From an uncultured bacterium (lineage in GTDB: Bacteria; Patescibacteriota; Gracilibacteria; UBA1369; PNNO01): a stretch of 32,000 bases of DNA. The stretch covers positions 660,001 to 692,000 of the forward strand of contig OY969931.1 in NCBI GenBank assembly GCA_963704705.1. Reading direction: 5' to 3'. Positions within the stretch are counted from its first letter, which is position 1. Each line of letters begins with the position of its first letter. The notes beneath the pieces were generated by a model. The model was not told the origin of the DNA, ran no database searches, and saw only the letters and a program-made list of their open reading frames with translations. Shown here piece by piece: positions 9,928 to 29,829 of this stretch. Position numbers and translations under genes: made by a program.

Positions 9928-11105
9928 TAAAAAAGCCAATTAACATTTTCGATAATTTAAGAGGTACAAGAATAATGCTTTATGGTGTTATTTTTTCTTT
10001 AATAATAGCTACATTAAGTTTTGGAATTATAGCTAAATCAACCAAAGAATCACTATTGGTAAAAGATGATCAGATTAATCTGCTTGCACAGGAAGTAGGT
10101 GAGTTAAAAGAAGAGAATCTGTATTTATATGATTATTTGAAGATTAATCGAGACATTGTGAGTGAGGGTTTTGATTTATTACATAAGTCTTTTGAAGACT
10201 ATGTTAATTCAGGAGAAACAGAGAAAAAAGAAGCTGAAAATCAATTTGAAAAAGTGAAAACTGATTTAATTACTGCAATTGGAGAAAAAGAAAAAGTAAT
10301 TGAAAATCTAAAAGTAAAAAATGAAAAATTAAATGATGAAGTTTCGTTTCAGGCATACGAGAGTGATATAACCAATATTTTAATTTTAGGCACACACGAT
10401 AAACTTACTGATACTATAATACTTGTATCAATCAATCCATCTAAAAACACCATTTCTCTAATAAGTATTCCAAGAGATTTATATTTAAACGGCAGAAAAA
10501 TTAATTCAATATATTCAGTATTTGGCATAGATCAGGTAAAGGAAGAAATATACAAAGTAACTGGTGTTTATCCAAATAAATATGCAATTATTGATTTCGA
10601 CAGTTTTATTAAAACGATTGATATTATTGGGGGGATTGATTTGTATGTTAAGAAAGATATTTATGATCCTTACTTCCCTGATTCAGCAAATGGTTATGAA
10701 GTTTATGAAATTAAAGCAGGGTCTCATCATTTTACAGGTGAACAGGCATTAATGTATTCCAGAAGCAGAAAATCAACTTCTGATTTTGACCGGAGCGAAA
10801 GACAGCATCAGGTAATTCAGGCTATTAGAGTTAAGCTGAAAAAATTAAATCTTCTTAGTGATTTGGATAAAGCCATAAGTATTTTTAAAGAGATTTCAAG
10901 CAGCTTTAAAACTGATATTGATGTTTTTGAAGCGCTTTATTACTTAAATCATTATCAGAATTATGCTATAGAAAGCGGAAATGTCTTAAGTACTGCAAAT
11001 TTACTTTATTCAACAAAATCAATAGACGGAGAATATATCCTTTTGCCAAAAAGTGGTGATTATTATGAAATCAAAAAGCAAATAAGTGAGTTGATTAAAA
11101 ATTAA
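9924..11105 (+). CDS. LytR-CpsA-Psr (LCP) family cell-envelope glycopolymer ligase
   Basis: N-terminal TM helix plus coiled coil, then the LCP core ILILGTHDKLTDTIILVSINPSKNTISLISIPRDLYL ... ALMYSRSRKSTSDFDRSERQHQVI. The start overlaps the upstream stop (ATGA). Confidence 0.85.
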   Translation: MIKKPINIFDNLRGTRIMLYGVIFSLIIATLSFGIIAKSTKESLLVKDDQINLLAQEVGELKEENLYLYDYLKINRDIVSEGFDLLHKSFEDYVNSGETEKKEAENQFEKVKTDLITAIGEKEKVIENLKVKNEKLNDEVSFQAYESDITNILILGTHDKLTDTIILVSINPSKNTISLISIPRDLYLNGRKINSIYSVFGIDQVKEEIYKVTGVYPNKYAIIDFDSFIKTIDIIGGIDLYVKKDIYDPYFPDSANGYEVYEIKAGSHHFTGEQALMYSRSRKSTSDFDRSERQHQVIQAIRVKLKKLNLLSDLDKAISIFKEISSSFKTDIDVFEALYYLNHYQNYAIESGNVLSTANLLYSTKSIDGEYILLPKSGDYYEIKKQISELIKN

Positions 11106-11770: not shown

Positions 11771-12295
11771 TTACCACCACACTTTTTTTATTTTCAATTT
11801 ATAAGCGATTACATTTGCTCCAAGCGCAAAAAGGGGCGAAATAATTAAAAGTATAATGATAAGTTCTAAGGTAGGCACAACAATAAGTGAGCCGATTAAT
11901 AAACCACCTACCACATAATCAATCTGGTCGAATATAATCCATGGTTCACCGCTTTTTTTACCTATTCGTCTTTTAAAATAACTTTTAATAAGATCACCGG
12001 TTAAGGCTCCAAGTCCAAGATAAAAGCTTAGAAGAAGTGTAAACATTAAATTATTTTGCCAAATTGAAAAACTATATAAACCAAAACCAAATTGAATTAA
12101 TCCAACAATTAAAGCTCCTAGAATACCAACAAAAAATCCTCTGTAAGTTTTGCTTTCACCAAACACTTTTTTGTTAATTGGTTTTGCAAGTGAGGGTAAT
12201 AATTTCAATCCATTAGCAATAACCGGCATAGCATTGGCTATATAGGCGGGTAGAAAAAAAATTATTGAAGCCAGAATTGCATTTAAAATTTGCAT
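11771..12295 (-). CDS. CDP-archaeol synthase-like (CarS/DUF46 family) CTP-dependent lipid cytidylyltransferase
   Basis: 174-aa polytopic membrane protein with patterns typical of the CarS family: FFLPAYIANAMPVI, GESKTYRGFFVGILGA, TGDLIKSYFKRRIGKKSGEPWIIFDQIDYVVG. Confidence 0.7.
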   Translation of the reverse strand: MQILNAILASIIFFLPAYIANAMPVIANGLKLLPSLAKPINKKVFGESKTYRGFFVGILGALIVGLIQFGFGLYSFSIWQNNLMFTLLLSFYLGLGALTGDLIKSYFKRRIGKKSGEPWIIFDQIDYVVGGLLIGSLIVVPTLELIIILLIISPLFALGANVIAYKLKIKKVWW

Positions 12296-12349: not shown

Positions 12350-12426
12350 TGGTAGCAGGGGAGGGGATCGAACCCACGACCTCGGGCTTATGAGTCCCGC
12401 GCTCTAACCAACTGAGCTACCCTGCC
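12350..12426 (-). tRNA. tRNA with CAU anticodon (elongator tRNA-Met, or tRNA-Ile2 if lysidine-modified), CCA encoded
   Basis: Hand-folded 77-nt cloverleaf: GGCAGGG acceptor, GCTC/GAGC D stem, CT-CAT-AA anticodon loop, GTTCGATC T loop, terminal CCA. It has G1-U72, A31-G39 and U50-U64 non-Watson-Crick pairs. It lacks the initiator C1-A72 feature. Confidence 0.85.
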
Positions 12427-13465: not shown

Positions 13466-14017
13466 ATGACATTACCAAATATTATTTCTATATTTCGCAT
13501 TTTACTGATTCCTGTAATAATTGCTTTTTTATTTATTGATTTTAATAATCATTATTATTTTGCTTTAGGTTTATACCTAATTGGGATGTTATCTGACTTA
13601 CTGGATGGTTATATAGCCCGTAAATATAAATTAGAAAGTAAACTTGGTCGTTTTCTAGATCCTCTTGCAGATAAAATAATGAATATTTTGATGATGGTTA
13701 CGTTAACTTATCTTCAGATTTTTCCTTTATGGATAGTTTTATTACAAATTGCCCGTGATTTGTTTGTTGATGCTGCAATTAATCTTCAGGCTTCATTAAA
13801 AATGTTTAATAGTGCGGCAATAGGCGCTAAGCTTAGAACTTTGTTTCTTGTTTTAGCTGTTTCAATTGGAATAATATCTTTAATTAATCTTGATCAAAAT
13901 TTGATAAATATTGCTTATTATTTATTAATAGCATCTTTTGTAGTTGGATTTTTTGGTATACAAAAGCCAAGTGTAATAATAGCTAAAACGATTTTGAAAA
14001 AATGGGGAAGAAAATAA
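13466..14017 (+). CDS. CDP-alcohol phosphatidyltransferase (PgsA/PssA-type; head-group specificity not determinable)
   Basis: 183-aa membrane protein with the family signature D-x2-DG-x2-AR-x8-G-x3-D-x3-D (SDLLDGYIARKYKLESKLGRFLDPLADKI). Confidence 0.85.
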   Translation: MTLPNIISIFRILLIPVIIAFLFIDFNNHYYFALGLYLIGMLSDLLDGYIARKYKLESKLGRFLDPLADKIMNILMMVTLTYLQIFPLWIVLLQIARDLFVDAAINLQASLKMFNSAAIGAKLRTLFLVLAVSIGIISLINLDQNLINIAYYLLIASFVVGFFGIQKPSVIIAKTILKKWGRK

Positions 14018-14020
14018 ATT

Positions 14021-14095
14021 TGGTTGCGGGGACAGGATTCGAACCTGCGACCTCCGGGTTATGAGCCCGACGAGCTGCCACTGCTCTACCCCGCG
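14021..14095 (-). tRNA. Initiator tRNA-fMet (CAU), CCA encoded
   Basis: 75 nt: CGCGGGGTAGAGCAGTGGCAGCTCGTCGGGCTCATAACCCGGAGGTCGCAGGTTCGAATCCTGTCCCCGCAACCA. It has the C1-A72 mismatch and three G-C pairs closing the anticodon stem, both bacterial initiator hallmarks. It is near-identical in layout to E. coli tRNA-fMet. Confidence 0.93.
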
Positions 14096-17597: not shown

Positions 17598-17815
17598 CTA
17601 GCACACTTCGTCGTACTTTCTCAACCTACTCAATCAGTCGCATTCGCTCCTTCTTCGTAGCTTGATCTAGCACACTTCGTCGTACTTTCTCAACCTACTC
17701 AATCAGTCGCATTCGCTCCCTCTTCGTAGCTTGATCTAGCACACTTCGTCGTACTTTCTCAACCTACTCAATCAGTCGCATTCGCTCCTTCTTCGTAGCT
17801 TGATCTAGCACACTT
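17598..17815. repeat. Non-coding tandem repeat, 69-bp unit x 3 full copies plus an 11-nt partial copy
   Basis: Units run 17598-17666, 17667-17735 and 17736-17804. The partial copy at 17805-17815 is the stop codon and last codons of the surface-protein gene. There is a single substitution (T to C in unit 2, GCTCCCTC). All six frames contain stops in every unit. Visibly more GC-rich than its surroundings. Confidence 0.95.
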
Positions 17816-19934
17816 TCTTTTTAAATTTAAAGTAAAGCTGAGAAATTAATAGAGAAATCAGAACAAACCAAATCATTTCCGGACCGGTTGATTCTAATTT
17901 ATTAGTTGTAATTGTTACTGTTTTCACTTGTGATTCGTCAGGCGGAGGTGTGAATACCTGCACTTGCGAGTAAGGAATTCCGCTTACTATGCTACTTTTA
18001 TTTGCACTCTCCTGATCAGCATCATCTACAGCAGCTACTGCAAAGAAATACTCCTGACCATTTACAAGATTAGGTATATACCAAGTTGTTTTATTATCAA
18101 ACGTATTAACTGCTCTATCTAAATTGCTTGGAGTAAGTCCAAAATATATTTTGTAATGATCAATACCTGAATCATCTGATGCCGGCTGCCATTTTAAAGT
18201 TACCTTAGCATCTGTTGAAACAACTTGTACTCCGAATACATCTGATGGTATTTGGTCTTCTTGTGCTACGGGTTGTTGTCCATCAATTAATCCATCACCG
18301 CCTTCGGTGATTTCTAATATTGCAACATTTGTGTAAGAACCTTCATTCCCAAGTTCATCAACCAAAATTACATCAAGCGGATATGTTCCTGGATCAGTTG
18401 GAGCCTGAATTGATGCGTTATATTTGGTAGGATCATTAGGATCTTGTTCAAGTTCAGCAATATCAACATTAAATACAACAGCTCCCTGAAATACATCTGG
18501 TTCTGAAGTTACAACAATATCCAAAATATCACCTGTTTTAATACCTGTTGATGGTGTGATTTTTATATTTTTTACTTCAGGTGGCGAAGTATCGATGTCG
18601 ATTTTTACTTCATCTGATGTATATTGAATTGTATCGTCGCTATCTAATGCAACCGCGATTAAAGTATGTGGTCCGTCTAAAAGCTCATCTGTTTGGAAAC
18701 TAAAAGTTCTGTCACCTTGTACTTCAGTTGAACCTAAAGTTACATCATTATCAAATAATTGAATCGTAAGATCAGTACTTGGTGCTGTTCCGGTTATTGT
18801 AAATTCTCTTTGACCGTAAGTACCAGCCGTAGGAGAGTCAATAACCAATTCAAAATCATTTCCGGTTGTAGTTTGCGGAGGCTGAGAACCAGTTCCAACA
18901 AAAATTTCTTCAGTTCCTCTAATTGTAAAATCACCCAAATCTGTAGCAACTACTGTATATGTTCCTGCTTGAGCGAAATTTAACGAAGAACCAGCGCCTT
19001 TAAATTCATGTGATCCGCTATCAAAATCAACATCAAACGTATAATCATTAGGTAAACTTGCATAAACACTGTTTGAACCTTCTACTGAAAAATGTACTGA
19101 TCCGGAATAATTAGGAACAATGCCTCCTTCTGAATCATAAGCCGTTAATGTGAATGGAGTATCTGAATTTGGTAAGATTGTTGCTGGAAGATTTTCAAAT
19201 ACAAGATTTGAAACTTCTCCGGCTTGCGCATAAGCGGTTTCAATAGAACCACCTGCGTTTTCCATACCTGTATAAGCTATTTCAACTCTTTTATCCAATA
19301 CTTTATTAGCTGTTGAATCCAAAAACGAATAGATTGAAACACCATCGCTTGTTGAAGATAGTGTGAAAATCATAGATCCGCTTTCATCTGTAAATGCTTT
19401 TTGTGATACTTTGAGAACCTGATCATTTGCTCTGCTTGAAATAACAGCAATTTCATGCCCTTTAATAGGGTTATCGTATTTATCTCTAAGTGTTATGGTA
19501 ACGTAAATTTTATCTGTTCCAGTTGCTTTAGCTACTAATTTCGAAGGATCAATTGTTGAATTTTCAGATGAAATACTGTCAGGAAATACAGTGAAAGTAT
19601 TAAAATTGCCATTTGTTCCGTTATCCAAATGCGCAGCAACTTTATATTCACCAGCTTCCTTTGTATGATAATCGTATAAATTGAATTCAGCAATTCCTTC
19701 ATCATTTGATAAAACTGGGATATTAAGCTCAGTGCCGCTTGGTTTTACAATGGTAAATACCACATTTTTATTTGCAAATGTTTTTGAACTATAAATTTGT
19801 GCTTCAAATCCTGCAATTGTATCCATTCCAAACGCTTCCAATTTAAATGGAGTCGATTCAGCTGATGCAATGCCAGCATTTAAAATTATTGTAGTCAGTA
19901 AGCCGAAAGCTAAATATTTGATTCGGTTTTTCAT
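17805..19934 (-). CDS. Large secreted surface protein with Ig-like (Big_1-type) and fibronectin-III domains and a C-terminal LPXTG-like anchor signal
   Basis: Start chosen at the Met giving signal peptide MKNRIKYLAFGLLTTIILNAGIASA. The longer track ORF to 20135 would overlap ilvE. Big_1-like segment YVTITLRDKYDNPIKGHEI. FN3 segment VTLKWQPASDDSGIDHYKIYF...NGQEYFFAVAAVD. The C-terminus reads LESTG, then a hydrophobic helix, then KFKKKVC. Confidence 0.8.
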   Translation of the reverse strand: MKNRIKYLAFGLLTTIILNAGIASAESTPFKLEAFGMDTIAGFEAQIYSSKTFANKNVVFTIVKPSGTELNIPVLSNDEGIAEFNLYDYHTKEAGEYKVAAHLDNGTNGNFNTFTVFPDSISSENSTIDPSKLVAKATGTDKIYVTITLRDKYDNPIKGHEIAVISSRANDQVLKVSQKAFTDESGSMIFTLSSTSDGVSIYSFLDSTANKVLDKRVEIAYTGMENAGGSIETAYAQAGEVSNLVFENLPATILPNSDTPFTLTAYDSEGGIVPNYSGSVHFSVEGSNSVYASLPNDYTFDVDFDSGSHEFKGAGSSLNFAQAGTYTVVATDLGDFTIRGTEEIFVGTGSQPPQTTTGNDFELVIDSPTAGTYGQREFTITGTAPSTDLTIQLFDNDVTLGSTEVQGDRTFSFQTDELLDGPHTLIAVALDSDDTIQYTSDEVKIDIDTSPPEVKNIKITPSTGIKTGDILDIVVTSEPDVFQGAVVFNVDIAELEQDPNDPTKYNASIQAPTDPGTYPLDVILVDELGNEGSYTNVAILEITEGGDGLIDGQQPVAQEDQIPSDVFGVQVVSTDAKVTLKWQPASDDSGIDHYKIYFGLTPSNLDRAVNTFDNKTTWYIPNLVNGQEYFFAVAAVDDADQESANKSSIVSGIPYSQVQVFTPPPDESQVKTVTITTNKLESTGPEMIWFVLISLLISQLYFKFKKKVC

Positions 19935-20069
19935 TTTTTTATTTTGATATCTTAGATATTTCTTAATATTATACCAAAAAAATGATTTTTTTACAATGTT
20001 TAAGGCTATATAATTGATTTTTTTTACATCATAACATAAGATTTTTTTGATATTTATTAATTTTTTATT

Positions 20070-20972
20070 ATGGATAAGGTTGATTTGATATGGATGAATG
20101 GCGAGTTTATACCTTGGGATAAAGCAAAAGTGCATGTTTTATCTCATTCTTTGCATTATGGAAGCGGTGTTTTTGAAGGAATTAGATTTTATGAAACAGC
20201 AAGCGGGAAAACCGCAATATTTAGATTAAAAGAGCACGTTGAAAGGCTTTATTTTTCTGCTAAAACTCTAGAAATGGAAATTCCATATTCAAAAGAAGAA
20301 ATTGAAAATATAATTCTTGAGACAATTAGAAAAAATAATGTTAAAGCAGGCTATATAAGACCTATAATTTTTTATGGATATGGTAAAATGGGTTTAAATC
20401 CTAAAGGTGCTGATTTGGATATTTGTATTGCTGTATGGCCTTGGGGATCATATTTAGGTGAGGATATGGTAAAAGTAAAAACTTCTTCAATTATAAGAAT
20501 CCATCCAAGAAGTTCAGAAACAAAAGCAAAAATAACCGGACATTACTCGAATTCAATTCAGGCCCATCTGGAAGCTGTAAATGCCGGATTTGATGAAGCT
20601 CTGTTACTTGATTTTGAGGGAAATGTTGCAGAAGGGCCGGGTGAAAATATATTTATGGTCAAGAATAACCAATTAATAACTCCTCAGGAAGGCAATATAC
20701 TTATTGGTGTTACGCGTGATTCAATTTTTAAAATTGCAGCTGATAATAATATTGAAGTAAATGAAAAATTGATTACTTTAGATGAATTGAAACAGTCTGA
20801 CGAAGCATTTTTTACTGGAACAGCTGCCGAAGTTACACCTATAAAACAAATTGATGAAACTATTGTTGGCGATGGAAAAACCGGACCGATTACAATTAAG
20901 TTAAAAACCTTATTTGAAGATGCAATTCATGGTAAAATAGACCAGTATTCAGAATGGTTAACTTATGTTTAA
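20070..20972 (+). CDS. ilvE: Branched-chain amino acid aminotransferase (fold-type IV PLP enzyme)
   Basis: 300 aa, collinear with E. coli IlvE: IWMNGEFIPWDKAKVHVLSHSLHYGSGVFEGIRFY, YIRPIIFYG, EGPGENIF, FFTGTAAEVTPI. Confidence 0.88.
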   Translation: MDKVDLIWMNGEFIPWDKAKVHVLSHSLHYGSGVFEGIRFYETASGKTAIFRLKEHVERLYFSAKTLEMEIPYSKEEIENIILETIRKNNVKAGYIRPIIFYGYGKMGLNPKGADLDICIAVWPWGSYLGEDMVKVKTSSIIRIHPRSSETKAKITGHYSNSIQAHLEAVNAGFDEALLLDFEGNVAEGPGENIFMVKNNQLITPQEGNILIGVTRDSIFKIAADNNIEVNEKLITLDELKQSDEAFFTGTAAEVTPIKQIDETIVGDGKTGPITIKLKTLFEDAIHGKIDQYSEWLTYV

Positions 20973-22537
20973 TGTATAAAAAAATTCTTCCGTTATTTAT
21001 CTTGATTGTATTTATTGCTTTGCCTTTTACTGCGTTTGCGCAACAAGCTGAAGCAACTGAGAGTCCAAACTATATTGGAGATGCTGTTTTTGAAGCTATA
21101 ATTACTGCTAGCAGCAGTGTTCAGCAAAATAAAAATATCATTTTCGATGCAACAAAAAGCACACATCCTGATCCAAATGCAAAAATTACCTATAGTTGGG
21201 ATTTTGGTGATGGTAACAAAAAAGAAGGACCGGAAGTAGTGCATAATTATACTGAATTGGGTCCTAAAACTGTCACACTTACTGCAAATGACGGGACTGA
21301 ATCTGTATCTACCACAAAAGAAATTTTTGTACATAAAAAAATTATTATATTAATTACTGATAAAGCTGATTTAAAAGAACGTCTCGATGGATTTACAAAT
21401 TATGCGAGAGATCGTGACAATGAGATTTTATTATACGAAAGTTATGATTCAGCTACAGAATTTATTTCAGAAGAAGTACTTGAAAGAAAATTAAGCGAAA
21501 ATATTGACAACTTAAGAAAAATCGATGAAATAATAGTATGGACTGACGGAGACTCTGGTTTAAATGCGTTATCCCGTGTAAAGCAAAATCAGGCTGCCCT
21601 TGATCCGCCGCTTACATTTGATAAAAAAACTATTTTAGTTCTTAAAGATGCGGATGAAAATCTGGGCCAGCTTCAAAGGCATTACGAATTGTTAAAGCCT
21701 GAAAATATTATTATTGCCAAAGAAGCTGCTTTTTACGCATTAATCGACAGTGACAATTCAACTGATTTTATTAATAAATTAAAAAATGACGGTTACGAAT
21801 ATAATTTGATTAATGTTGAAACAGGAACACTTCAGATTTGGAACTTTATGTCATATTTTGTTAATTACCTGATCGACAGCGGAATTCCTGCAAATACTGT
21901 TATTTTGATTTTAATGTTACCTGTAATTGCGACAATAGTCGCGTTTATGAAACAAATAGTGGGATTAACCACATTTGGTGTTTATACTCCTTCAATTATA
22001 ACTTTAACTTTTTGGATTTTAGGTCTTAAATTCGGCATTCTAACTTTAATTGTGATTCTTTTGGTTGGTACAGGCGTACGAATTGCCTTAAGCAGATTCA
22101 GACTATTATATATCCCGAAAATGGCGGTTGTATTATCAACTGTAGCATTAGCCATATTCGCACTTTTGATTATTTCAATTAGATTCAATCTATTTGATGC
22201 TCAATTTTTCTCTTTATCAATATTCCCAATGTTAATTTTGAGTACTTTGACTGAAAAATTTGTAAATGTTCAAACAGGAAAAGGATTTAACCGTGCATTA
22301 ATATTGGTTTTGCAGACATTATTGGTAGCAATAATCGCATACATTGTTATAGGCGGTGAAATTGACTTTTTCTTGTTCAAACTTAAGTTCTCGGCATTGC
22401 AGGGCTTCATCCTTGCTTATCCTGAAGTGATTTTATTATTTATAATTGTAAATATATTCCTTGGAAGATGGACAGGATTAAAATTATTGGAATATGTAAG
22501 ATTCAGAGAGGTGCTGCGTCACGTTGAAGAAGAATAA
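20972..22537 (+). CDS. Secreted PKD-domain plus alpha/beta domain fused to a C-terminal 7TM module (7TM_transglut-like)
   Basis: Start placed at the Met giving signal peptide MYKKILPLFILIVFIALPFTAFA (TAATG overlap with ilvE; the track ORF starts at 20954). PKD motif ITYSWDFGDGNKKEGPEVVHNYTELGPKTVTLTANDG. About 7 TM helices from roughly residue 300, ending GRWTGLKLLEYVRFREV. This is typical of the 7TM family that partners RimK-like ATP-grasp enzymes. Confidence 0.75.
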   Translation: MYKKILPLFILIVFIALPFTAFAQQAEATESPNYIGDAVFEAIITASSSVQQNKNIIFDATKSTHPDPNAKITYSWDFGDGNKKEGPEVVHNYTELGPKTVTLTANDGTESVSTTKEIFVHKKIIILITDKADLKERLDGFTNYARDRDNEILLYESYDSATEFISEEVLERKLSENIDNLRKIDEIIVWTDGDSGLNALSRVKQNQAALDPPLTFDKKTILVLKDADENLGQLQRHYELLKPENIIIAKEAAFYALIDSDNSTDFINKLKNDGYEYNLINVETGTLQIWNFMSYFVNYLIDSGIPANTVILILMLPVIATIVAFMKQIVGLTTFGVYTPSIITLTFWILGLKFGILTLIVILLVGTGVRIALSRFRLLYIPKMAVVLSTVALAIFALLIISIRFNLFDAQFFSLSIFPMLILSTLTEKFVNVQTGKGFNRALILVLQTLLVAIIAYIVIGGEIDFFLFKLKFSALQGFILAYPEVILLFIIVNIFLGRWTGLKLLEYVRFREVLRHVEEE

Positions 22538-22548
22538 CTTTATAGCCA

Positions 22549-24945
22549 ATGTTCTTATTAAATGACAAAGGGATTTTAGGATTAAATGCAAGAAATTTGT
22601 TGTACATAAGGCCGTATAACCAAAAGAAAACAATAAAACTTGCCGACGATAAGATTAAAACTAAAAAGTTTCTATCTGCCCGGGGTATTCCTGTTCCAAA
22701 ATTATATGCTTCAATAAGAACAAAACAGGAATTGGAAAAATTTGATTTTCATTCTTTACCAAATACTTTTATTTTAAAACCTAATCATGGTTTTGGAGGA
22801 GAGGGGATTATTCCTATTACAAGCAAACGCGGTGATCATTTTGTAAAATCTTCCGGTAAAAAAATAACAAAAGCTGAATTAATAGATCAAATCTCCGATA
22901 TATTGGATGGCCGTTATTCGATTTCAAATGTTGGTGATACAGCTTTTTTCGAACAGCTAATTATCTCGAATGAATCACTTGGTAATTATTCTTATAGAGG
23001 ATTGCCTGATATTCGCGTAGTTGTTCATAATTTAATTCCGGTTATGGCTATGTTAAGACTTCCAACTAAAGAGTCCGGAGGTAAAGCCAATCTGCATTTG
23101 GGTGCTGTGGGTGTTGGAATTGATATTGCAAAAGGTGAATGTACATATATTGCCTATAAAAACAAAATTATAGACGAAGTACCTGGTGTTGGACCGATTA
23201 AAGGTTTAAAAATTCCTTATTGGGAAGATATTCTGATGGTTGCGTCAAAATGTCAGCTTATTACAAATCTTGGTTATATGGCTGCTGATATTGCAATTGA
23301 TAAAACAAGCGGTCCTGTTTTGCTTGAAATCAATGCAAGAGCAGGACTAGGGGTGCAAATTGCAAATCTTGCACCGCTTAAAAAAAGACTTCAAAGAATT
23401 GAAGGAGTGAAAGTAACAACTCCTGTAAAAGGTGTTCGCATAGCAAAAGATATGTTCGGAAATGTAGTGGAGAAAGAAGTGCAGCATATTTCAGGTAAAA
23501 ATATTATTGGAATTGAAGAAGTTGTTGAAATTAATTTGAAGGATGGGGTAAGAAGAGTTAATGCAAAAATGGATTCGGGTGTTGAAAGGAGCATAATCAA
23601 TGAAAAATTCGCAATTGATAATGATTTATTAAAAGAAGAATATGAATATGATGACGAAAAATCTACTGTTAAATTAAAGCTTTCTGTTGCTGATGAGAGA
23701 ATTCAGACAGTTGCAGATATTGAGAAAATTACAGAAGGAGATTACACGATTATTATTGGCAGACGTGATTTGTCTAATTTCTTTATCGATCCTTCTAAAA
23801 AGATTCAAAAGGCCGAATTGCCAACTGAAATTTCTAAAAAAGAAAAACCAAAAAAAGAAATATCATTAACAAGTAGTGTGAATTTTGCTGAAATAGATCA
23901 AAAATTAATTAAAATTGATGAAAGGTTAAAACTTTTATATCATCTAAGGCCATTAAACCTTGAAGAACAAAAACAAGAATTTTTCAAGAATTTTAAGAAA
24001 AATCCTGAATTTGAATATGCTGAACTTAAATTTGATACGTATTCTTTACGCAAAGAACTTGAACAAATAATAACTGATGATTCATCTCTTGGAATTTTAT
24101 TTGAAAAAAAGAAGAAAGAAATTGCTAAAAAAATTAATTTATTGGATTTCAGAGGTTATTCTCAGGAATTTACAGAAGCATCCATTGAACTTTATGGCAT
24201 TCCATCACCTGAGCTTGTACAGGAAGCCACTGATTTACTTCTAAAATCAGAAGGTGAGTTTTCTCAGCCAAATGGAACTATAACAGCGGAAGAAGCAAAG
24301 AAAACAATGGACAATGTATTCAAAGATTACGGTTTAACAAATTGGGAAGTAAAAATTAAAGAAAGTATGGTTTCTGATGCAATTGCAGGTAAAAACAACA
24401 GATTGTTCTTAAGAAAAGGTGCTACTTTTACTGAAAGCAGAATTGATAATTTAATAATTCATGAAATTGAAACACATATATTAACCGCTGAAAACGGCAA
24501 ATCGCAGCCTTACGAATTATTTAACAGAGGTTTGGCAAATTATCTTGAGACGCAGGAAGGTTTGGCAATTTATAATATTTTAAATAAAAAGCACGAAGAA
24601 GCTAAAAATTTATATCTTTCATTATCCCTTGTGGTTGCTGTTGATATGGCGTTACGACATTCATTTGTACAGATTTTTGAAAAAATGCTTGGATTTAAAA
24701 TTCCTCCTGAAAGAGCATTTAGAACCGCTGTTAAAGTAAAACGCGGATTAGAAAACACTGAAGAAGCTGGTGGCTTTACAAAAGATTTCTTATATTATAA
24801 AGGATATAAACAAATCAAAGAGTTTGTTTCTACAGGTGGGGCAATAAAAGACTTATACAGAGGTAAATTCAATGCCAACGATATTGAATATGTACTTCAG
24901 GTACCTAATATAAAAGTGTCCAAATATCTTCCAAAATGGCTTTAA
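22549..24945 (+). CDS. Tripartite fusion: RimK-related ATP-grasp (alpha-L-glutamate ligase-like) + RimB/retropepsin-like domain + DUF1704/MATCAP-type QEGLA-motif metallocarboxypeptidase
   Basis: ATP-grasp, aa 1-~285: ILGLNARNLLYI, ADDKIKTKKFL, ILKPNHGFGGEGI, LLEINARAGLG. Retropepsin-like, aa ~318-417: NAKMDSGVERS (DSG at 23572-23580) and IIIGRRDLSNFFIDPSK. Metallopeptidase, aa ~445-798: HEIETH (24460-24477) and TQEGLA (QEGLA at 24553-24567). Confidence 0.8.
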   Translation: MFLLNDKGILGLNARNLLYIRPYNQKKTIKLADDKIKTKKFLSARGIPVPKLYASIRTKQELEKFDFHSLPNTFILKPNHGFGGEGIIPITSKRGDHFVKSSGKKITKAELIDQISDILDGRYSISNVGDTAFFEQLIISNESLGNYSYRGLPDIRVVVHNLIPVMAMLRLPTKESGGKANLHLGAVGVGIDIAKGECTYIAYKNKIIDEVPGVGPIKGLKIPYWEDILMVASKCQLITNLGYMAADIAIDKTSGPVLLEINARAGLGVQIANLAPLKKRLQRIEGVKVTTPVKGVRIAKDMFGNVVEKEVQHISGKNIIGIEEVVEINLKDGVRRVNAKMDSGVERSIINEKFAIDNDLLKEEYEYDDEKSTVKLKLSVADERIQTVADIEKITEGDYTIIIGRRDLSNFFIDPSKKIQKAELPTEISKKEKPKKEISLTSSVNFAEIDQKLIKIDERLKLLYHLRPLNLEEQKQEFFKNFKKNPEFEYAELKFDTYSLRKELEQIITDDSSLGILFEKKKKEIAKKINLLDFRGYSQEFTEASIELYGIPSPELVQEATDLLLKSEGEFSQPNGTITAEEAKKTMDNVFKDYGLTNWEVKIKESMVSDAIAGKNNRLFLRKGATFTESRIDNLIIHEIETHILTAENGKSQPYELFNRGLANYLETQEGLAIYNILNKKHEEAKNLYLSLSLVVAVDMALRHSFVQIFEKMLGFKIPPERAFRTAVKVKRGLENTEEAGGFTKDFLYYKGYKQIKEFVSTGGAIKDLYRGKFNANDIEYVLQVPNIKVSKYLPKWL

Positions 24946-25964
24946 AGAATTAACATAACATCTCCAAAACTATAGAATCTATATTTGTTTTCGATTGCTT
25001 TTTCATAAGCTTCAAACACAAAATCTTTTCCTGCAAATGCACTTATTAACATTAAAAGTGTACTTTGCGGCAAATGGAAATTGGTAAGCATTACATCAAC
25101 AGCTTTAAATTTATATCCTGGATAAATAAAAATATCAGTTTCATTGCATTCTTCATGAAATTTACCATTTTTTATATTTGATTCAAGCGTTCTTACCGAA
25201 GTAGTGCCTACTGCAAGTATTTTTTTGTTTAATTTTTTTGATTCATTAAGAAATTCAGCAGTACTTTTTGTTATGCTATACCATTCTGAGTGCATTTTAT
25301 GATCTTTAATATTTTCAGTTTTGACAGGTAAAAATGTTCCTCTGCCAACATGTAAAGTAGTAAATGTTTTTTTAATTCCTTTTGATTCAAGCTTGTTGAA
25401 AATATCATTGGTAAAGTGCAATCCAGCTGTAGGGGCTGCAATACTTCCTGAATCTTTAGAATAAATTGTCTGATAGTCATCAAAACTGGCCTTAGAGTTT
25501 TTTATGTACGGAGGGAATGGGGGATAGCCATTATCTTCAATCCATTTATCGAGCGAAGTAAGATTAAGGAATTCTATTTTCCTCGTTCCGTCATCAAAAA
25601 TTTCAATTATTTTTGCTTCAATTGTATTTATTTTTCCAATTACCTTAAAAATTATGTCTTTTTTGAATTTTTTACCAGGTTTTACCATTGCTTTCCAGGT
25701 GTTTTCAGAATATTTTTTTAATAACAATAATTCACCTTTGCTTCCATCAATTTCAACATACAGACGAGCTGCAATTACTTTTGAATTATTTAAAACAATT
25801 ACATAATTATCATTTAAAATATAGGGAAGTTCATTAAAAACCCTGTGTTCAATTGTCTTTTTGCTTCTATTCAGAACCATTAATTTTGAAGTATCCCTCG
25901 GATAAACAGGCTTACTTGCAATTAACTCCTTTGGAAGTATGTAATCGAAATCTTTAGTTAACAT
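24942..25964 (-). CDS. queA: S-adenosylmethionine:tRNA ribosyltransferase-isomerase
   Basis: 340 aa. FDYILPKELIASKPVYPRDTSKLMVL N-terminus, AAPTAGLHFT, HVGRGTF, AVGTTSVRTLES, and C-terminal YRFYSFGD. Confidence 0.93.
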   Translation of the reverse strand: MLTKDFDYILPKELIASKPVYPRDTSKLMVLNRSKKTIEHRVFNELPYILNDNYVIVLNNSKVIAARLYVEIDGSKGELLLLKKYSENTWKAMVKPGKKFKKDIIFKVIGKINTIEAKIIEIFDDGTRKIEFLNLTSLDKWIEDNGYPPFPPYIKNSKASFDDYQTIYSKDSGSIAAPTAGLHFTNDIFNKLESKGIKKTFTTLHVGRGTFLPVKTENIKDHKMHSEWYSITKSTAEFLNESKKLNKKILAVGTTSVRTLESNIKNGKFHEECNETDIFIYPGYKFKAVDVMLTNFHLPQSTLLMLISAFAGKDFVFEAYEKAIENKYRFYSFGDVMLIL

Positions 25965-27090
25965 TAGTTGTTGGGGCTACACTTTCAGTTTGTTTTACTG
26001 TTCCGGTGTATTTTAACGCCATAAGGGTAATATCATCAAGTTGCTCTGCTTCACCTACGAATTGTGAGAAATCAGTTGCTGCGTGATAAGTAACTCCTTC
26101 AGGACCATATTGTGAAGCGTATTTGCTAATTAATTCTTTTAGGCGATCCAAACCAAACATTTCACCTTGTGTGTTTTGGGCTTCGGTTATGCCATCTGTA
26201 TATAAAACAATCTGATCTCCTATTTCTAATGGCAATTCAAGTTCTTTTACTATTTTACTGTTGTCCGGAGTCATACCAAGTGCAACACCACCGCATTTTA
26301 TACTATCTATTTGGCCTGTTTTAGCACGGTAAACTAGTATATATTCATGACCTGACCCGACATAAGTCATTTTTTGCGTTTTATGATCCCATTTAAGCAT
26401 TACCATGCTCATGAACATTGAAGATTTAATACGCGGTTTTAATTGTTTATTTGTATGAACTACAATATCGTATGTATTTTCGTACATTTCAGCATACGTA
26501 TGAAGTAAGGTATTAACCATCATCATAACAAGAGCAGCCGGTGCTCCATGCCCGGTCACATCCCCAATATAAAAATATGTTGAATCTTTTCCATTAATAT
26601 AATCAAAACTATCTCCTCCAACTTCAACTGCTGGTCGCGTTTTAGTAACAACTTCAAGACCCGGAACAATTGGACTCTGTTTTGGGAATATTGTTTGCTG
26701 AATTTCAGCAGCAACATTAAGTTCAGATGACATTCTCTTTTCTTCTTTTAATTTTTTTGAAATAATTTCAAGATTTTCAGTGGTTTCATTGAAAAATTGG
26801 GCGATTATACCTAGTTCATCTATTCTGTTTGTTTCTATTCTTTTATAACTTTTACCTGTTAATATTAATTTCATTTGTTTTGTAATTTTCTTTAAAGGGC
26901 TGTTTATCAATTTATAAATAAGTAAACTTACTAATAAAAATACAACTGCAAGTCCAATTAAACTGTAAATTAAAGGAAAATTAAGTGGTAAACCCCAATA
27001 ATAATATGCACCGGCACCTATAATCAAACATAATACAAAGAATATAAGTGCAAATCTTCTAGATAAATTTTTTCGGAACCAGACAAACAT
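25954..27090 (-). CDS. Membrane-bound HAMP-domain PP2C (SpoIIE/RsbU-type) serine phosphatase
   Basis: Two TM helices with almost no external loop, then a HAMP-like linker (NSPLKKITKQMKLILTG...IDELGIIAQFFNETTENL). PP2C metal-binding motifs are intact: VGGDSFDY, IGDVTGHGAPAAL, LYTDGITEA, DDITLMAL. Confidence 0.85.
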   Translation of the reverse strand: MFVWFRKNLSRRFALIFFVLCLIIGAGAYYYWGLPLNFPLIYSLIGLAVVFLLVSLLIYKLINSPLKKITKQMKLILTGKSYKRIETNRIDELGIIAQFFNETTENLEIISKKLKEEKRMSSELNVAAEIQQTIFPKQSPIVPGLEVVTKTRPAVEVGGDSFDYINGKDSTYFYIGDVTGHGAPAALVMMMVNTLLHTYAEMYENTYDIVVHTNKQLKPRIKSSMFMSMVMLKWDHKTQKMTYVGSGHEYILVYRAKTGQIDSIKCGGVALGMTPDNSKIVKELELPLEIGDQIVLYTDGITEAQNTQGEMFGLDRLKELISKYASQYGPEGVTYHAATDFSQFVGEAEQLDDITLMALKYTGTVKQTESVAPTTNVN

Positions 27091-27092
27091 AT

Positions 27093-27446
27093 TTATATTG
27101 AATTAGCAGCCTCTTCTTCAGAATTAAGACAATTGATCAGCTGGTTTAATCCAACCAGATTAAAAATGTCCATAATTTGTGCAGAAGCATTTATAATAAA
27201 AATCTTTTTGTTTTGTGCGGTAAAACGATTATATACATCAGTAATAAATCCTATACCTTCACTATTAATAAATTTTAATTCAGTTAAATCAAGAATAAGA
27301 TTTGGCAACGTAAACGCCGCTAAAAATTGTTCCATTGATTCTCTGAAATTCGCAACTGAATCACGGTCAATTTCTCCGATTACTTTTATAACCTGATAAT
27401 TTTTTTCAGCATTAGGTTCGTTTGGGGTTAGACTAATTTGCGCCAT
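27093..27446 (-). CDS. STAS-domain anti-sigma-factor antagonist (SpoIIAA/RsbV-like)
   Basis: 117 aa from the Met at 27446; the longer track ORF would overlap the upstream gene. LDLTELKFINSEGIGFI carries the conserved phosphorylatable Ser (codon 27261-27263). Its stop lies 2 nt from the phosphatase start. Confidence 0.8.
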   Translation of the reverse strand: MAQISLTPNEPNAEKNYQVIKVIGEIDRDSVANFRESMEQFLAAFTLPNLILDLTELKFINSEGIGFITDVYNRFTAQNKKIFIINASAQIMDIFNLVGLNQLINCLNSEEEAANSI

Positions 27447-29829
27447 TATAATTTGGATTAAGATATAATATATCATCAATATTTTGGACTTCTTCGTGCT
27501 CATTTACAAGCTCATATGCATTTCGAAGCTTAATAAGCTCAGATCTGTCAAGTTTATCTAAGTTTTCCGCATCCATATCAACAAGAATATCATTTACATA
27601 TGCTGAAACGCAAATATGTAAGTATCTAAATAGATTTTTCTTAACTGAATCTGGCAGAAGTTCTATTTCATGAGTTATTTTTTCTCTTTTTCTTTCATCT
27701 GAATGAATGAGTGAATCACAAATTACATCTATCCCGACTGTGGAATTCATTTTGCATAGAGCAATCGAAGCAGTAAGACTTTCTTCATCATCTTTCGAAT
27801 AAATATAATCTTTAAGTCTGTTTTTTTCCTGTACAGCTTCAATTTCTCCAACTACATAAAACCCTTTAATACGTTCTAATCTATCATTACTAAATAACAT
27901 TTTTTTCAATTCCTGATATACTTTAATTTTACTTTTAGGATATTTCCATAATGCAATTATTGCGTTTCCTTTGATTTCCGGATTTTCTGAATCAAGATAT
28001 GGGCTTAAATAATGTATTAAATTGATATCATCAAAATGCGCACAAGCAGCAATACAATTTGTTTTAATATTTATATCATCAGATTCCAATAATTGAAGTA
28101 TGAAATCAACTATTTGTTCAGACTGTAATCTGGCAAGAATTTTTATTATTAAAGCTTTGATGTCGTTGTCTTCTTCTATTTCAAATTGCTCTTTTAAAAG
28201 CGCATTGATTCGGTGAAGTGAAAAAAGCCTTTTGGATGATTTCTTTTTGATAACATCAAACTGATTTAAGGCATTTAATGCGGCAATTCTTACTTTTCTG
28301 TTTTTATCATTAATATAATCTAAAATTTCAAGAATTGATTCATGTTCTTTCATATGACCTAAAGTTTCAAGTATTTTCACTTTTACTTTTGGATCAAGAT
28401 GGTTTTCTTTTAATGTTTTTGCAAGTATTTGAGCTGAATTTTTATGTCCTTTTTGCCCTAGCACTTCAATAGCATTTAACTGAAGTATTAAATTTTTTGT
28501 ATGAAGCAGATTTTTAATTGATAAATGACTATATTTATTTTCATTTTTTAGAAGCACTACTAACATCCCAACAGCTATTAAAATCATAAATCCTGTTATA
28601 ATAGTGTTTAAGGAGTTAAATGCATAAGTATATTGAAGTATTAATAAAAATGTCATTCCAATAATTGTTCCGATAGGCTGACTAAATCCTTCAATAATTT
28701 CTCTTGCGTCTTCTCTTGCGTCAGGATTAATTGCATAAAAAGATGTATGATATGCACTTTTTTGAATTATACTTGTCATTTCAAAATTTACTTTTGCAAG
28801 TACTGCAGAAGGAAATCCAAATCTTAATAACATTGCACCCAAACTAAATAATGTAACAACAGGATGAAGCAATAATGATCCAACTACACCTAATGAAGTA
28901 ATAATTCTACTGGCAACCAGTATCTGCATTAATAATGCAAATGAGTAAAAGAATATATTAAGCGTACTTAATCCATGTGTTAATTCTTCTGCCGGGTTAT
29001 GAATACCCGAAGAAATATTATTGTAAACAGCTTTCGTGAATTGAAATTCAAGTAAATGCATAAATATCCATTGCAGTATCATAACAATAAACATGATTTT
29101 TAAAAACGGCATTAACTTAAAGTTTTCTATTAATTTTTTTATTTTTGTAAATTCATTTACATGATTTCCATCTGCTTTTTGTTTTTTTCTAATTAAAGGC
29201 ATTCGTCTTAATATCTTTCTATGGAATAAAATTAATGGTGCAGTTAGTGCTAAACAAATCACTGCAATATTTATCAAATTTGCAACAGGTATAAATGGTG
29301 TTAGAAAAGCCATCAATAGAGCTCCAACTATACCTCCTACAGTTTCAGCTGATTCAATTACCGGAAAAGTTCTTTCGCTTTCTAAAGGCGTGAAAAGATC
29401 TTCAATAAAAGCGGAATTTAATATATACAACTGCGATAAAAATATCGCTAATACTGGTATGCTTATAAATAAAAATAAATAATTACTGAAATTATTTACA
29501 AATAAAGCAATTAATAAAAGAACTGCTCCAATCAACGAAGTATATAGAATCAACTTATCTTTTGGTATTTTATGCAGAATATTTGAGTAAAAATACGCTC
29601 CTGCTATTCTCGAAACAGCATAAATCAAAAAGAAATAAGGTAAATTAAAAATGCCAAAATTAGTTACAAAAAGGGCAATTAGAGAAATCCAGGTAATAAT
29701 ATGAGCTGTCTTATATAAAAATTGTAACATCCACGATAAATTTATACGCGGCCACTCTCCTTCAGTGACATTTATAATTTTATTCAGTATGTGTATTGCA
29801 ATTTTTGTTTTTTCTTTTGTTTCTCCCAA
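27433..29829 (-). CDS. Polytopic MFS/TLC-like transporter fused to a C-terminal HEAT-repeat domain
   Basis: About 12 predicted TM helices over the first ~440 aa, with a central basic loop (HRKILRRMPLIRKKQKADG). These are followed by ~350 aa of HEAT/PBS-lyase-like repeats (NAIEVLGQKGHKNSAQILAKTL, KVRIAALNALNQF, NPEIKGNAIIALWKY). Substrate unknown. Confidence 0.7.
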   Translation of the reverse strand: MGETKEKTKIAIHILNKIINVTEGEWPRINLSWMLQFLYKTAHIITWISLIALFVTNFGIFNLPYFFLIYAVSRIAGAYFYSNILHKIPKDKLILYTSLIGAVLLLIALFVNNFSNYLFLFISIPVLAIFLSQLYILNSAFIEDLFTPLESERTFPVIESAETVGGIVGALLMAFLTPFIPVANLINIAVICLALTAPLILFHRKILRRMPLIRKKQKADGNHVNEFTKIKKLIENFKLMPFLKIMFIVMILQWIFMHLLEFQFTKAVYNNISSGIHNPAEELTHGLSTLNIFFYSFALLMQILVASRIITSLGVVGSLLLHPVVTLFSLGAMLLRFGFPSAVLAKVNFEMTSIIQKSAYHTSFYAINPDAREDAREIIEGFSQPIGTIIGMTFLLILQYTYAFNSLNTIITGFMILIAVGMLVVLLKNENKYSHLSIKNLLHTKNLILQLNAIEVLGQKGHKNSAQILAKTLKENHLDPKVKVKILETLGHMKEHESILEILDYINDKNRKVRIAALNALNQFDVIKKKSSKRLFSLHRINALLKEQFEIEEDNDIKALIIKILARLQSEQIVDFILQLLESDDINIKTNCIAACAHFDDINLIHYLSPYLDSENPEIKGNAIIALWKYPKSKIKVYQELKKMLFSNDRLERIKGFYVVGEIEAVQEKNRLKDYIYSKDDEESLTASIALCKMNSTVGIDVICDSLIHSDERKREKITHEIELLPDSVKKNLFRYLHICVSAYVNDILVDMDAENLDKLDRSELIKLRNAYELVNEHEEVQNIDDILYLNPNYNGAN

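Follow-up and report, generated by a model that had tools for sequence, protein, structure and literature searches.

Which amino acid is joined to which acceptor by an ATP-grasp ligase that is fused to peptidase-type domains and encoded directly behind a membrane protein? This question is raised by two neighbouring genes, here called gene 1 and gene 2, in a 32,000-nucleotide (nt) stretch of a Peregrinibacteria (candidate phyla radiation, CPR) genome; the whole stretch is referred to as the window, and all coordinates are window positions. Gene 1 encodes a seven-transmembrane (7TM) protein and gene 2 a three-domain cytoplasmic enzyme of 798 amino acids (aa). The original prediction, which was made from the sequence, had presented the pair as an uncharacterised system for which no function had been demonstrated. 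This description had to be abandoned. The pair is a fused CPR (peregrinibacterial) variant of the Rlo (RloB/RloC/RloA) module, a kind of system already known from the genetics of rloABC and from the cleavage of polyglutamate by RloA in vitro (PMC12239564), and also from the literature on amidoligase gene neighbourhoods. We put at about 0.5 the probability that the pair constitutes a membrane-docked ligase/carboxypeptidase cycle by which a short acidic chain at a C-terminus is lengthened or shortened.

The rloABC genes were named in Pseudomonas aeruginosa by Lormand et al. (mBio 2025; PMC12239564), and encode (i) RloA, a retropepsin-like protease, (ii) RloB, a 7TM protein whose transglutaminase domain is inactive and (iii) RloC, an ATP-grasp protein. 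Three secreted RloA proteins are jointly needed for survival at low osmolarity, normal cell shape, biofilm formation and beta-lactam tolerance; in vitro, RloA cuts runs of at least eight glutamates by means of a basic substrate channel, RimB likewise cleaves polyglutamate, and RimK adds glutamate to ribosomal protein S6 (PMC12239564). In both Pseudomonas and Vibrio, the Rlo operon has an influence on tolerance of antibiotics, on biofilm and on osmotic survival; its CPR version holds the whole chemistry in two proteins of compact architecture.

Domain architecture of the fusion enzyme

The four families to which the pair had originally been assigned (7TM_transglut, the RimK-related ATP-grasp clade, RimB-like protease and QEGLA/DUF1704) were all recovered, by profile, fold or transitive homology; among the profiles proposed for this purpose, those for ATP-grasp, DUF1704, 7TM and PKD each found a match in Pfam or NCBIfam. 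In gene 2, ATPgrasp_ST (PF14397) covers residues 15-285 (E 2.3e-67) at 227.6 bits, where the cut-off is 31.4, and the match extends over positions 2-277 of the 278 in the model. The TIGR02291 model, 'alpha-L-glutamate ligase-like', scores 286.8 bits, slightly below its equivalog cut-off of 314.2, which is expected because gene 2 is a fusion from a distant phylum. The motifs read earlier in this part of the protein (ILGLNARNL, ADDKIKTK, ILKPNHGFGGEGI and LLEINARAG) are all present, and none of the ligase residues K77, D247, E260, N262 and R264 varies in any of 120 homologues.

The AlphaFold2 (AF2) model of gene 2, computed with 40 orthologues, has a mean predicted local distance difference test score (pLDDT) of 80.8. 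Foldseek comparison of this model with the PDB returned human MATCAP (7z5g) as the first match (E 4e-12), followed for the ligase by RimK (5zk6, 5zct, 4iwx and 7qys) and ArgX/LysX at E of approximately 1e-8; ArgX in complex with LysW (3vpb) was also among the top fold matches. The ligase aligns by hhalign with residues 83-267 of Escherichia coli RimK, whose residues 1-82 have no counterpart, and the RimK model of Pfam scores 16.7 bits, under its cut-off of 21.

At the other end of the protein, MATCAP/DUF1704 (PF08014) matches residues 477-796 (E 1.5e-57) with a score of 195.7 bits, the cut-off being 27, over positions 2-345 of the 365 in the model, and TIGR02421 (QEGLA) reaches 200 bits, under the equivalog cut-off of 338.65 that applies to stand-alone proteins. 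In the alignment with human MATCAP, HEIETH falls on HEIGTH and QEGLA on EEGLA. Of the catalytic motifs put forward at the outset, E-x-N in the ligase and QEGLA in the carboxypeptidase align as expected and are invariant, but the metal motif is HExxxH rather than HExxH. The HExxxH motif together with EEG forms the metal site of the MATCAP/TMCP family, whose enzymes remove C-terminal tyrosine or glutamate and shorten polyglutamate chains (PMC10499314). Residues H638, E639, H643, Q669, E670, G671 and A673 are invariant in all 120 homologues. The domain is predicted from its sequence to be a carboxypeptidase, and is the securely predicted eraser of the system.

The middle domain (residues ~316-415) is about 42 residues shorter than usual and was more difficult to place. 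PF05618 gave no match to it even at E up to 10, Asp_protease_2 matched at E 0.06-0.1 (and in 20 of 29 orthologues), and a search of PDB sequences at E up to 10 returned no RloA chain, only weak matches to Ddi1-type retropepsins. A library of viral structures, in which ATP-grasp and MATCAP folds are scarce, was then used. Its matches to the middle domain include a phage 'acid protease' (E 4.6e-6, template modelling (TM) score 0.65), an 'ATP-dependent zinc protease' (E 6.7e-4; this is the older name for RimB-family proteins) and also proteases of retroviruses and caulimoviruses. In a BLASTP comparison, gene 2 residues 5-421 aligned with a 486-aa CPR protein from locus L082 (37% identity, E 2e-101), and a stretch toward the C-terminus of this CPR protein, aligned with the middle domain, matches PF05618 at E 6.9e-10; AKMDSGVERS in gene 2 stands opposite AKIDTGADDS in L082, and IIIGRRDLSNFFID opposite ILIGRRNLSHFLID. 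The fold matches and this transitive alignment together identify the middle domain as a RimB-like retropepsin.

Its active-site motif reads D-S-G-V in the window protein. Of 33 lineages that lack MATCAP, 32 have the canonical form K-[ILV]-D-[TS]-G-A, as do all four with a separate MATCAP gene, but it is found in only 4 of the 17 triple fusions of the metagenome set and in 64 of 120 close homologues. R384, R406 and D407 are invariant in the 120 homologues, and so is the GxRDL motif; by its sequence, the domain has the look of a module retained for binding or dimerisation. The enzyme had been described as a dual peptidase. Two peptidase-type domains are indeed present by homology, but since the retropepsin motif decays in the triple-fusion clade, MATCAP is left as the single securely predicted eraser and the term is an overstatement.

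The first residues of gene 2 form a further conserved element. G8, L10, G11, N13, R15, N16, L17, Y19, Y23 and N24 are invariant in the 40 orthologues, and the first 24 residues have a pLDDT of 28-34 despite this near-invariance. A segment that is nearly invariant yet predicted to be disordered is typical of a docking peptide, and this one may, as far as conservation and model indicate, dock the enzyme to its 7TM partner.

Conservation of the pair and origin of the fusion

More than 120 full-length homologues of gene 2 were found (57-93% identity), and those with a named organism are assigned by label to Peregrinibacteria, Gracilibacteria or Patescibacteria, apart from one metagenome-assembled genome labelled Nitrospirota. 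A scan of species-representative genomes yielded at least 544 encoding stretches, the best 80 of which are the genome loci considered here; nearly all of these 80 bear the label Peregrinibacteria, Peribacteria, Gracilibacteria or Patescibacteria. In all 77 loci that include the upstream DNA, the gene 2 homologue is immediately preceded by a co-directional 7TM gene, down to 47% identity, which bears out the expectation that the two genes are conserved together. The same order (7TM gene, then ligase gene) recurs in nearly all of approximately 80 metagenome loci of more distant relatives. The TAATG link to the preceding gene, ilvE, noted in the original prediction, is incidental, as ilvE adjoins the pair in only about 20 of the best 80 loci; ilvE was considered as a component of the system and rejected, since no more than about a quarter of the loci have it next to the pair.

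Searching 1.84 billion proteins with the 7TM module gave 1400 matches at E up to 1e-3, and the distant relatives among them were studied by 12 look-ups of locus context and by the 80-locus metagenome scan, for which a six-sequence alignment served as query. Sequence comparison indicates an ancestral CPR core in which a PKD-type 7TM gene precedes a gene for an ATPgrasp_ST protein of ~420-490 aa with a C-terminal RimB-like domain. An unfused operon of another CPR lineage (locus L090) consists of a 7TM gene, a gene for an ATP-grasp protein with a RimB-like domain (PF05618), a separate MATCAP gene and then an ATP-grasp gene. The existence of this unfused operon shows that the 798-aa protein is a fusion of neighbouring operon genes, in line with the earlier view that an enzymatic repertoire had been collapsed into one polypeptide. 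A further locus found with the 7TM query (L092) carries a transglutaminase-7TM gene and a 316-aa ATPgrasp_ST gene, which is the canonical RloB-RloC pair.

In three loci of other CPR lineages (L081:3553-6800, L083:4227-6178 and L090:8025-9479), the pair is followed by two to three extra RimK/GshB-like ATP-grasp genes, which might represent a multi-ligase operon making a mixed peptide rather than a homopolymer.

In public annotations, the triple fusion appears without comment as 'tyrosine/phenylalanine carboxypeptidase domain-containing protein' or as 'alpha-L-glutamate ligase-like protein/uncharacterized protein (TIGR02421 family)'; a literature search found no published description of it, and no later paper on Rlo.

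The membrane partner and its glutamate tail

Gene 1 carries a PKD domain (Pfam; residues 44-118, E 3.6e-16) and the 7TM_transglut module (PF14402; residues 312-514, E 3.9e-27, 95.8 bits against a cut-off of 25). NF052267, the model of the osmotic stress tolerance membrane protein RloB, matches its C-terminal half only (model positions 312-507; E 5e-19, 68 bits against a cut-off of 900). Pfam detected no Transglut_core on gene 1; a PKD domain and an alpha/beta domain stand there instead, and the original prediction was thus right in assuming an ectodomain other than the inactive transglutaminase. In the AF2 model (pLDDT 78), a signal helix is followed by the PKD sandwich, the alpha/beta domain, seven membrane helices and a long C-terminal helix. 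By Foldseek, the PKD domain resembles that of ColG (4tn9/2y72; TM-score 0.84-0.87). The alpha/beta domain shows an alternating strand-helix pattern (pLDDT 80-90), without a match in Pfam and with weak Foldseek matches. Residues Q328, P340, E428, T449 and P484-E485 of the 7TM module are among those invariant in orthologues.

The seven helices had been recognised earlier, but the protein does not end at ...VRFREV, as was then assumed; it runs on to ...VRFREVLRHVEEE-COOH. Since the N-terminus is secreted and seven transmembrane helices follow, the C-terminus is predicted by the modelled topology to be cytoplasmic.

This end is uniform. EE, EEE, EEEE or EEEEE-COOH terminates 120 of 120 gene 1 homologues and the 7TM proteins of 77 of 77 genome loci (197 of 197 altogether, where proteins and loci may overlap), the pattern among orthologues being ...RH[IV] followed by two to five glutamates. 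In the 77 genome loci, there are two glutamates in 45 cases, three in 31 and four in one. Among 600 other open reading frames (ORFs) of the same loci, an EE ending occurs in four (0.7%). When the wider 7TM family was grouped into 134 clusters at 50% identity, 63 clusters had an EE ending and 54 had other, mostly basic tails; in the EE-ending clusters, the linker of 5-13 residues in front of EE varies in both sequence and length.

The presence of the EE tail is associated with that of MATCAP. In the de-duplicated loci L081-L173 having at least 2.6 kb of downstream DNA, 14 EE-tailed proteins are encoded with MATCAP and 2 without it, against 4 with and 34 without for non-EE tails (Fisher p = 9e-8, uncorrected for phylogeny). 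The first 77 genome loci, which are outside this 2x2 table, provide 77 further cases of EE with MATCAP. Neither direction of the association amounts to a strict rule: that MATCAP implies an EE tail is ruled out by L090, L095, L098 and L108 (MATCAP gene, basic tail), and that an EE tail implies MATCAP is ruled out by L084 and by an orphan in L173. The latter (L173:7748-8407) is a 7TM family gene ending ...RFRELLQKEEEE, and no ATP-grasp, RimB-like or MATCAP match was obtained in its 15.4-kb locus (~7 kb on either side).

Other subfamilies have endings of their own: many transglutaminase-type relatives (homologues of P0381) end in ...ETRKVS[TAV]G-COOH and others in ...AAADQR. Such subfamily-specific conservation of the C-terminus suggests that the tail matters across the 7TM family.

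Proposed mechanism and alternative explanations

The identities of the domains and the coupling of the two genes are practically beyond doubt. The 7TM protein would expose its PKD and alpha/beta domains outside the cell, while a basic helix with EE(E)-COOH as its end would point toward the cytoplasm, and the gene 2 enzyme would act at the cytoplasmic face of the membrane. There, the ATP-grasp domain, whose closest relatives are RloC and RimK, would activate a C-terminal carboxylate with ATP and add amino acids singly, most probably L-glutamate, and the MATCAP-type HExxxH domain would strip the added amino acids from the C-terminus. The retropepsin-like remnant is likely to have kept a capacity to bind acidic chains or to dimerise on them, but its cutting activity may no longer be selected in this clade. 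The net result would be an ATP- and glutamate-dependent, adjustable acidic chain at the membrane, with the EE-COOH tail of the partner as the leading candidate for its anchor.

These steps are not equally secure. Glutamate-tail chemistry is rather probable by analogy, as RimK-type ligases, RimB/RloA and MATCAP provide three independent family precedents that are all tied to C-terminal glutamate chains. The identification of the EE tail as the acceptor is tentative. It is a somewhat bolder conjecture that the 7TM protein is the substrate proper, its EE tail a primer lengthened by the ligase and trimmed by MATCAP, i.e. a reversible switch of tail length; and a role in envelope or osmotic homeostasis, suggested by homology with Rlo, is likewise doubtful.

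Several observations weigh against the cycle at the partner's tail. The inter-domain geometry of gene 2 is of low confidence in the AF2 model (predicted TM-score 0.49). About 40% of the 7TM family clusters have basic, non-EE tails and yet retain the same ligase; the L090 protein, which is encoded with a separate MATCAP gene, ends in RHVQPPKKK, as confirmed at the DNA level; and among 95 transglutaminase-type relatives whose tail could be read, none has an EE ending. With EE absent from so many members, modification of the tail cannot be a family-wide mechanism. Moreover, the EE tail, MATCAP and the decayed retropepsin motif may stem from a single ancestral event. Finally, the protease partner in Pseudomonas is periplasmic, which points to an exported product and not to a cytoplasmic tail (PMC12239564).

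The last point leads to the main rival account, which the genetics of Pseudomonas favour and which we consider possible but short of probable: the ligase would make a free acidic oligo- or polypeptide, the 7TM protein would translocate it and the ectodomains would hold it at the surface, the fused peptidase only limiting its length or clearing excess and EE-COOH being a docking or pseudo-substrate motif instead of an acceptor. In P. aeruginosa, the defect caused by loss of the periplasmic RloA is suppressed by deletion of rloB or rloC (PMC12239564), hence the RloB/RloC-dependent product is reached from the periplasm. Export would also fit the invariance of polar or charged intramembrane residues (Q328, E428, T449 and P484-E485), the extra ligase genes of L081, L083 and L090, which recall a peptide-biosynthesis operon, and the missing EE tails of many family members. 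Yet the window system has its two peptidase-type domains in the cytoplasm, as parts of the ligase protein, which is closer to the control of tails by RimK/RimB than to secreted RloA; nothing but docking would be left as a role for the strict EE-COOH ending and its association with the carboxypeptidase domain; conserved acidic helix residues would be an odd lining for a polyanion pore; and the gene 1 model has no Foldseek match to a solved transporter fold. Export and tail modification could be combined, the tail serving as primer and the product being cleaved off and exported.

The remaining explanations detach the enzyme from its partner to a greater degree. It is improbable that another cytoplasmic protein, e.g. 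S6, is modified, with the 7TM protein as an anchor or an outside-sensing regulator: although RimK and ArgX/LysX are the closest solved ligases and the characterised homologues of both the RimB-like and MATCAP domains act on protein C-termini, the N-terminal domain of RimK is absent and the RimK model stays below threshold, in the genome and metagenome loci the pair has no conserved neighbour that would be a candidate target gene, and the strict coupling to the 7TM gene as well as the EE tail would be left unexplained. Even less probable is the amidation of a non-protein envelope component (a sugar acid, peptidoglycan stem or teichoic-acid-like polymer) with MATCAP recycling the amino acid. This notion draws on the Pfam name of the ligase family, 'sugar-transfer associated ATP-grasp', on the cell-shape and beta-lactam phenotypes of Rlo mutants (PMC12239564) and on a LytR_cpsA_psr protein and a Mur ligase in the window, which are, however, not adjacent to the pair; against it, across 150 loci no gene for a glycosyltransferase or for sugar activation is kept next to the pair, and both accessory domains come from families of peptide-bond hydrolases that act on acidic peptide chains. 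That the genes are functionally unlinked and adjacent merely through peregrinibacterial synteny is nearly excluded, because the pairing holds outside the syntenic clade: a wider gene order (Ig-like surface protein, pair, queA and PP2C phosphatase) is conserved too, but distant lineages keep the pair beside ruvC, ruvA, dnaB or mutL, the transglutaminase-type Rlo pair shows the same pairing, and ilvE and queA come and go.

Three evolutionary clues point to a mechanism, namely the terminal Glu-Glu of the membrane partner, a carboxypeptidase gained with the tail and the decay of the older endopeptidase motif, and this pattern makes the substrate question of the Rlo ligase directly testable. If the 7TM protein is indeed the substrate, a tail switch similar to the tubulin code or to S6 could follow the cytoplasmic glutamate and ATP pool (osmotic state) and adjust how active the 7TM module is; an ancestral, native job of the MATCAP family would be shown and a first substrate named for the RloC class of ligases. 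A bacterial MATCAP relative fused to a ligase also bears on the origin of eukaryotic tail-modification cycles. Should the tail idea fail, the pair remains a compact model for an Rlo export or turnover pathway.

Layout of the locus and other features of the window

The ORF map and the sequence agree with the earlier description of two co-directional genes that are 11 nt apart and joined to ilvE by a TAATG overlap. The ilvE gene occupies 20070-20972, and the ATG of gene 1 at 20972 lies within the overlap (20970-20974); the N-terminal consensus of the orthologues (MxKK...FAQ) speaks for this start and against the ATG at 20954. The last codons of gene 1 are gaa gaa gaa taa (22526-22537). No terminator-like site or hairpin was seen in the scanned spacer region between genes 1 and 2, which by their arrangement are probably co-transcribed. 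Gene 2 converges on queA, the ends of both genes overlapping by 4 nt. Recoding of the Gracilibacteria type (code 25) was considered and rejected; the window genes read through intact under code 11. The features of the pair are listed in Table 1, where the cleavage site of the signal peptide is a predicted one.

Table 1 Features of the two-gene locus (window positions).
Feature	Position	Strand	Evidence
Gene 1, 521-aa RloB-like 7TM membrane partner without transglutaminase domain	20972-22537	+	ORF, Pfam, NCBIfam, AF2 model
Sec-type signal peptide MYKKILPLFILIVFIALPFTAFA	20972-21040	+	Hydrophobic segment 1-26, model helix 2-19, consensus ...FAQ
Extracellular PKD beta-sandwich	21089-21334	+	Pfam; Foldseek
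Extracellular alpha/beta domain without family assignment, replacing the inactive transglutaminase of RloB	21338-21811	+	AF2
Seven-transmembrane module, 7TM_transglut family	21878-22480	+	PF14402; seven helices at residues 307-497
Predicted cytoplasmic C-terminal tail GRWTGLKLLEYVRFREVLRHVEEE-COOH; EEE codons 22526-22534	22463-22534	+	Homologue tails, transmembrane topology
11-nt spacer (ctttatagcca) between genes 1 and 2	22538-22548	+	Sequence read
Gene 2, 798-aa cytoplasmic fusion enzyme, no signal peptide	22549-24945	+	ORF, homologues, AF2 model
Near-invariant N-terminal peptide MFLLNDKGILGLNARNLLYIRPYN, predicted disordered	22549-22620	+	Conservation, AF2
ATP-grasp ligase domain (RloC/TIGR02291/ATPgrasp_ST); E260-x-N262 codons 23326-23334	22591-23448	+	Pfam, NCBIfam, Foldseek, hhalign
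Shortened RimB-like retropepsin-fold domain; D342-S343-G344 23572-23580, GRRDL 23758-23772	23494-23793	+	Foldseek, transitive alignment
Lys/Glu-rich flexible linker	23794-23880	+	pLDDT <50 at residues 418-442; variable gapped alignment columns
MATCAP/TMCP-type (DUF1704, QEGLA) metallocarboxypeptidase domain; HEIETH 24460-24477, QEGLA 24553-24567	23881-24945	+	Pfam, Foldseek

The surroundings of the pair are shared by many Peregrinibacteria loci, in which an Ig-like/fn3 surface protein (776 aa) is encoded first, then the pair, followed by queA and a HAMP-SpoIIE (PP2C) phosphatase. In the window, the surface protein, which has a C-terminal anchor, is encoded at 17805-20135 (-); this longest reading overlaps the start of ilvE by 66 nt (20070-20135), and the true start is probably a later methionine. 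Downstream, queA (24942-25964, -), a HAMP-SpoIIE membrane phosphatase (25954-27090, -) and a STAS-domain protein (27093-27503, -) are encoded, of which the latter two look like a partner-switching signalling module. An antisense ORF of 113 aa (20993-21334, -) inside the PKD-coding part of gene 1 is very probably spurious.

Elsewhere in the window, a CarS-like protein (11771-12295, -) was found, with a CDP-alcohol phosphatidyltransferase nearby (13466-14017, +); it belongs to the CDP-archaeol synthase family PF01864, an archaeal-type lipid-activation family which is here present in a bacterial genome. Other large genes encode an 841-aa VirD4/TraG-like type IV coupling protein (7402-9927, +), overlapping a gene for a LytR_cpsA_psr cell-wall-attachment protein (9924-11105, +), and a 798-aa ORF with a TTG start (27433-29829, -), comprising an MFS transporter domain and HEAT repeats. 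The sole Rfam matches in the window are two tRNA genes with a CAT anticodon (12350-12426, - and 14021-14095, -), which may be initiator and elongator tRNA-Met, or include a tRNA-Ile2 precursor.

Comparison with known systems

The window system and Rlo have in common the 7TM family PF14402, the ATP-grasp clade PF14397/TIGR02291, the position of the 7TM gene immediately before the ligase gene and a retropepsin domain of the RimB/RloA type. They differ in that (i) the ectodomain consists of PKD and alpha/beta domains instead of the transglutaminase fold of RloB, (ii) the retropepsin is internal to a cytoplasmic ligase protein, shortened and decaying in its motif, whereas RloA is separate and secreted, (iii) a MATCAP domain is fused on and (iv) the 7TM protein ends in EE-COOH, unlike all 95 transglutaminase-type relatives. 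No separate gene for an RloA-like protease was found near the pair in the window, and, to our knowledge, the CPR host presumably has no periplasm. An osmotic link of the proteobacterial relatives, uncited in the Rlo paper, is provided by salinity data for Photobacterium damselae: at low salinity, RimK was induced 52-fold, a QEGLA-motif protein 27-fold and the locus numbered next to the QEGLA gene, annotated as glutathione synthase GshB, 38-fold (PMC10308900).

With RimK/RimB, the system shares an ATP-grasp enzyme of the same structural neighbourhood and a cytoplasmic retropepsin-like partner. Ribosomal protein S6, the acceptor of RimK, ends in ...EE and in this resembles the 7TM tail. In contrast to RimK/RimB, the window ligase lacks the N-terminal domain of RimK, its partner is a membrane and not a ribosomal protein, a carboxypeptidase domain is added and the EAL-domain protein RimA is absent; no rpsF gene is present in the window.

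The eukaryotic MATCAP/TMCP enzymes (KIAA0895L and KIAA0895) have the same PF08014 domain, with the HExxxH and (E/Q)EG metal site, and trim tyrosine or glutamate tails that are added by ligases of the ATP-grasp fold (TTL/TTLL), a logic that the window enzyme would share. In the window protein, however, the predicted writer and eraser are united in one polypeptide, the identity is ~20% and the target cannot be tubulin.

The LysW-dependent enzymes LysX and ArgX are also RimK-family ATP-grasp enzymes that ligate onto the C-terminal glutamate of a dedicated partner, but their carrier is a small soluble zinc-ribbon protein, the linkage is biosynthetic and neither a peptidase nor a membrane partner is involved. 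Finally, a proteobacterial neighbourhood of TIGR02291 ligase-like, TIGR02421 QEGLA, 7TM-transglutaminase and RimB-like protease genes has reportedly been noted by Iyer et al. in 2009 and in the TIGRFAMs notes. It is made up of the same four families as the pair described here, which fuses three of them in one protein and supplies the fourth with a different ectodomain.

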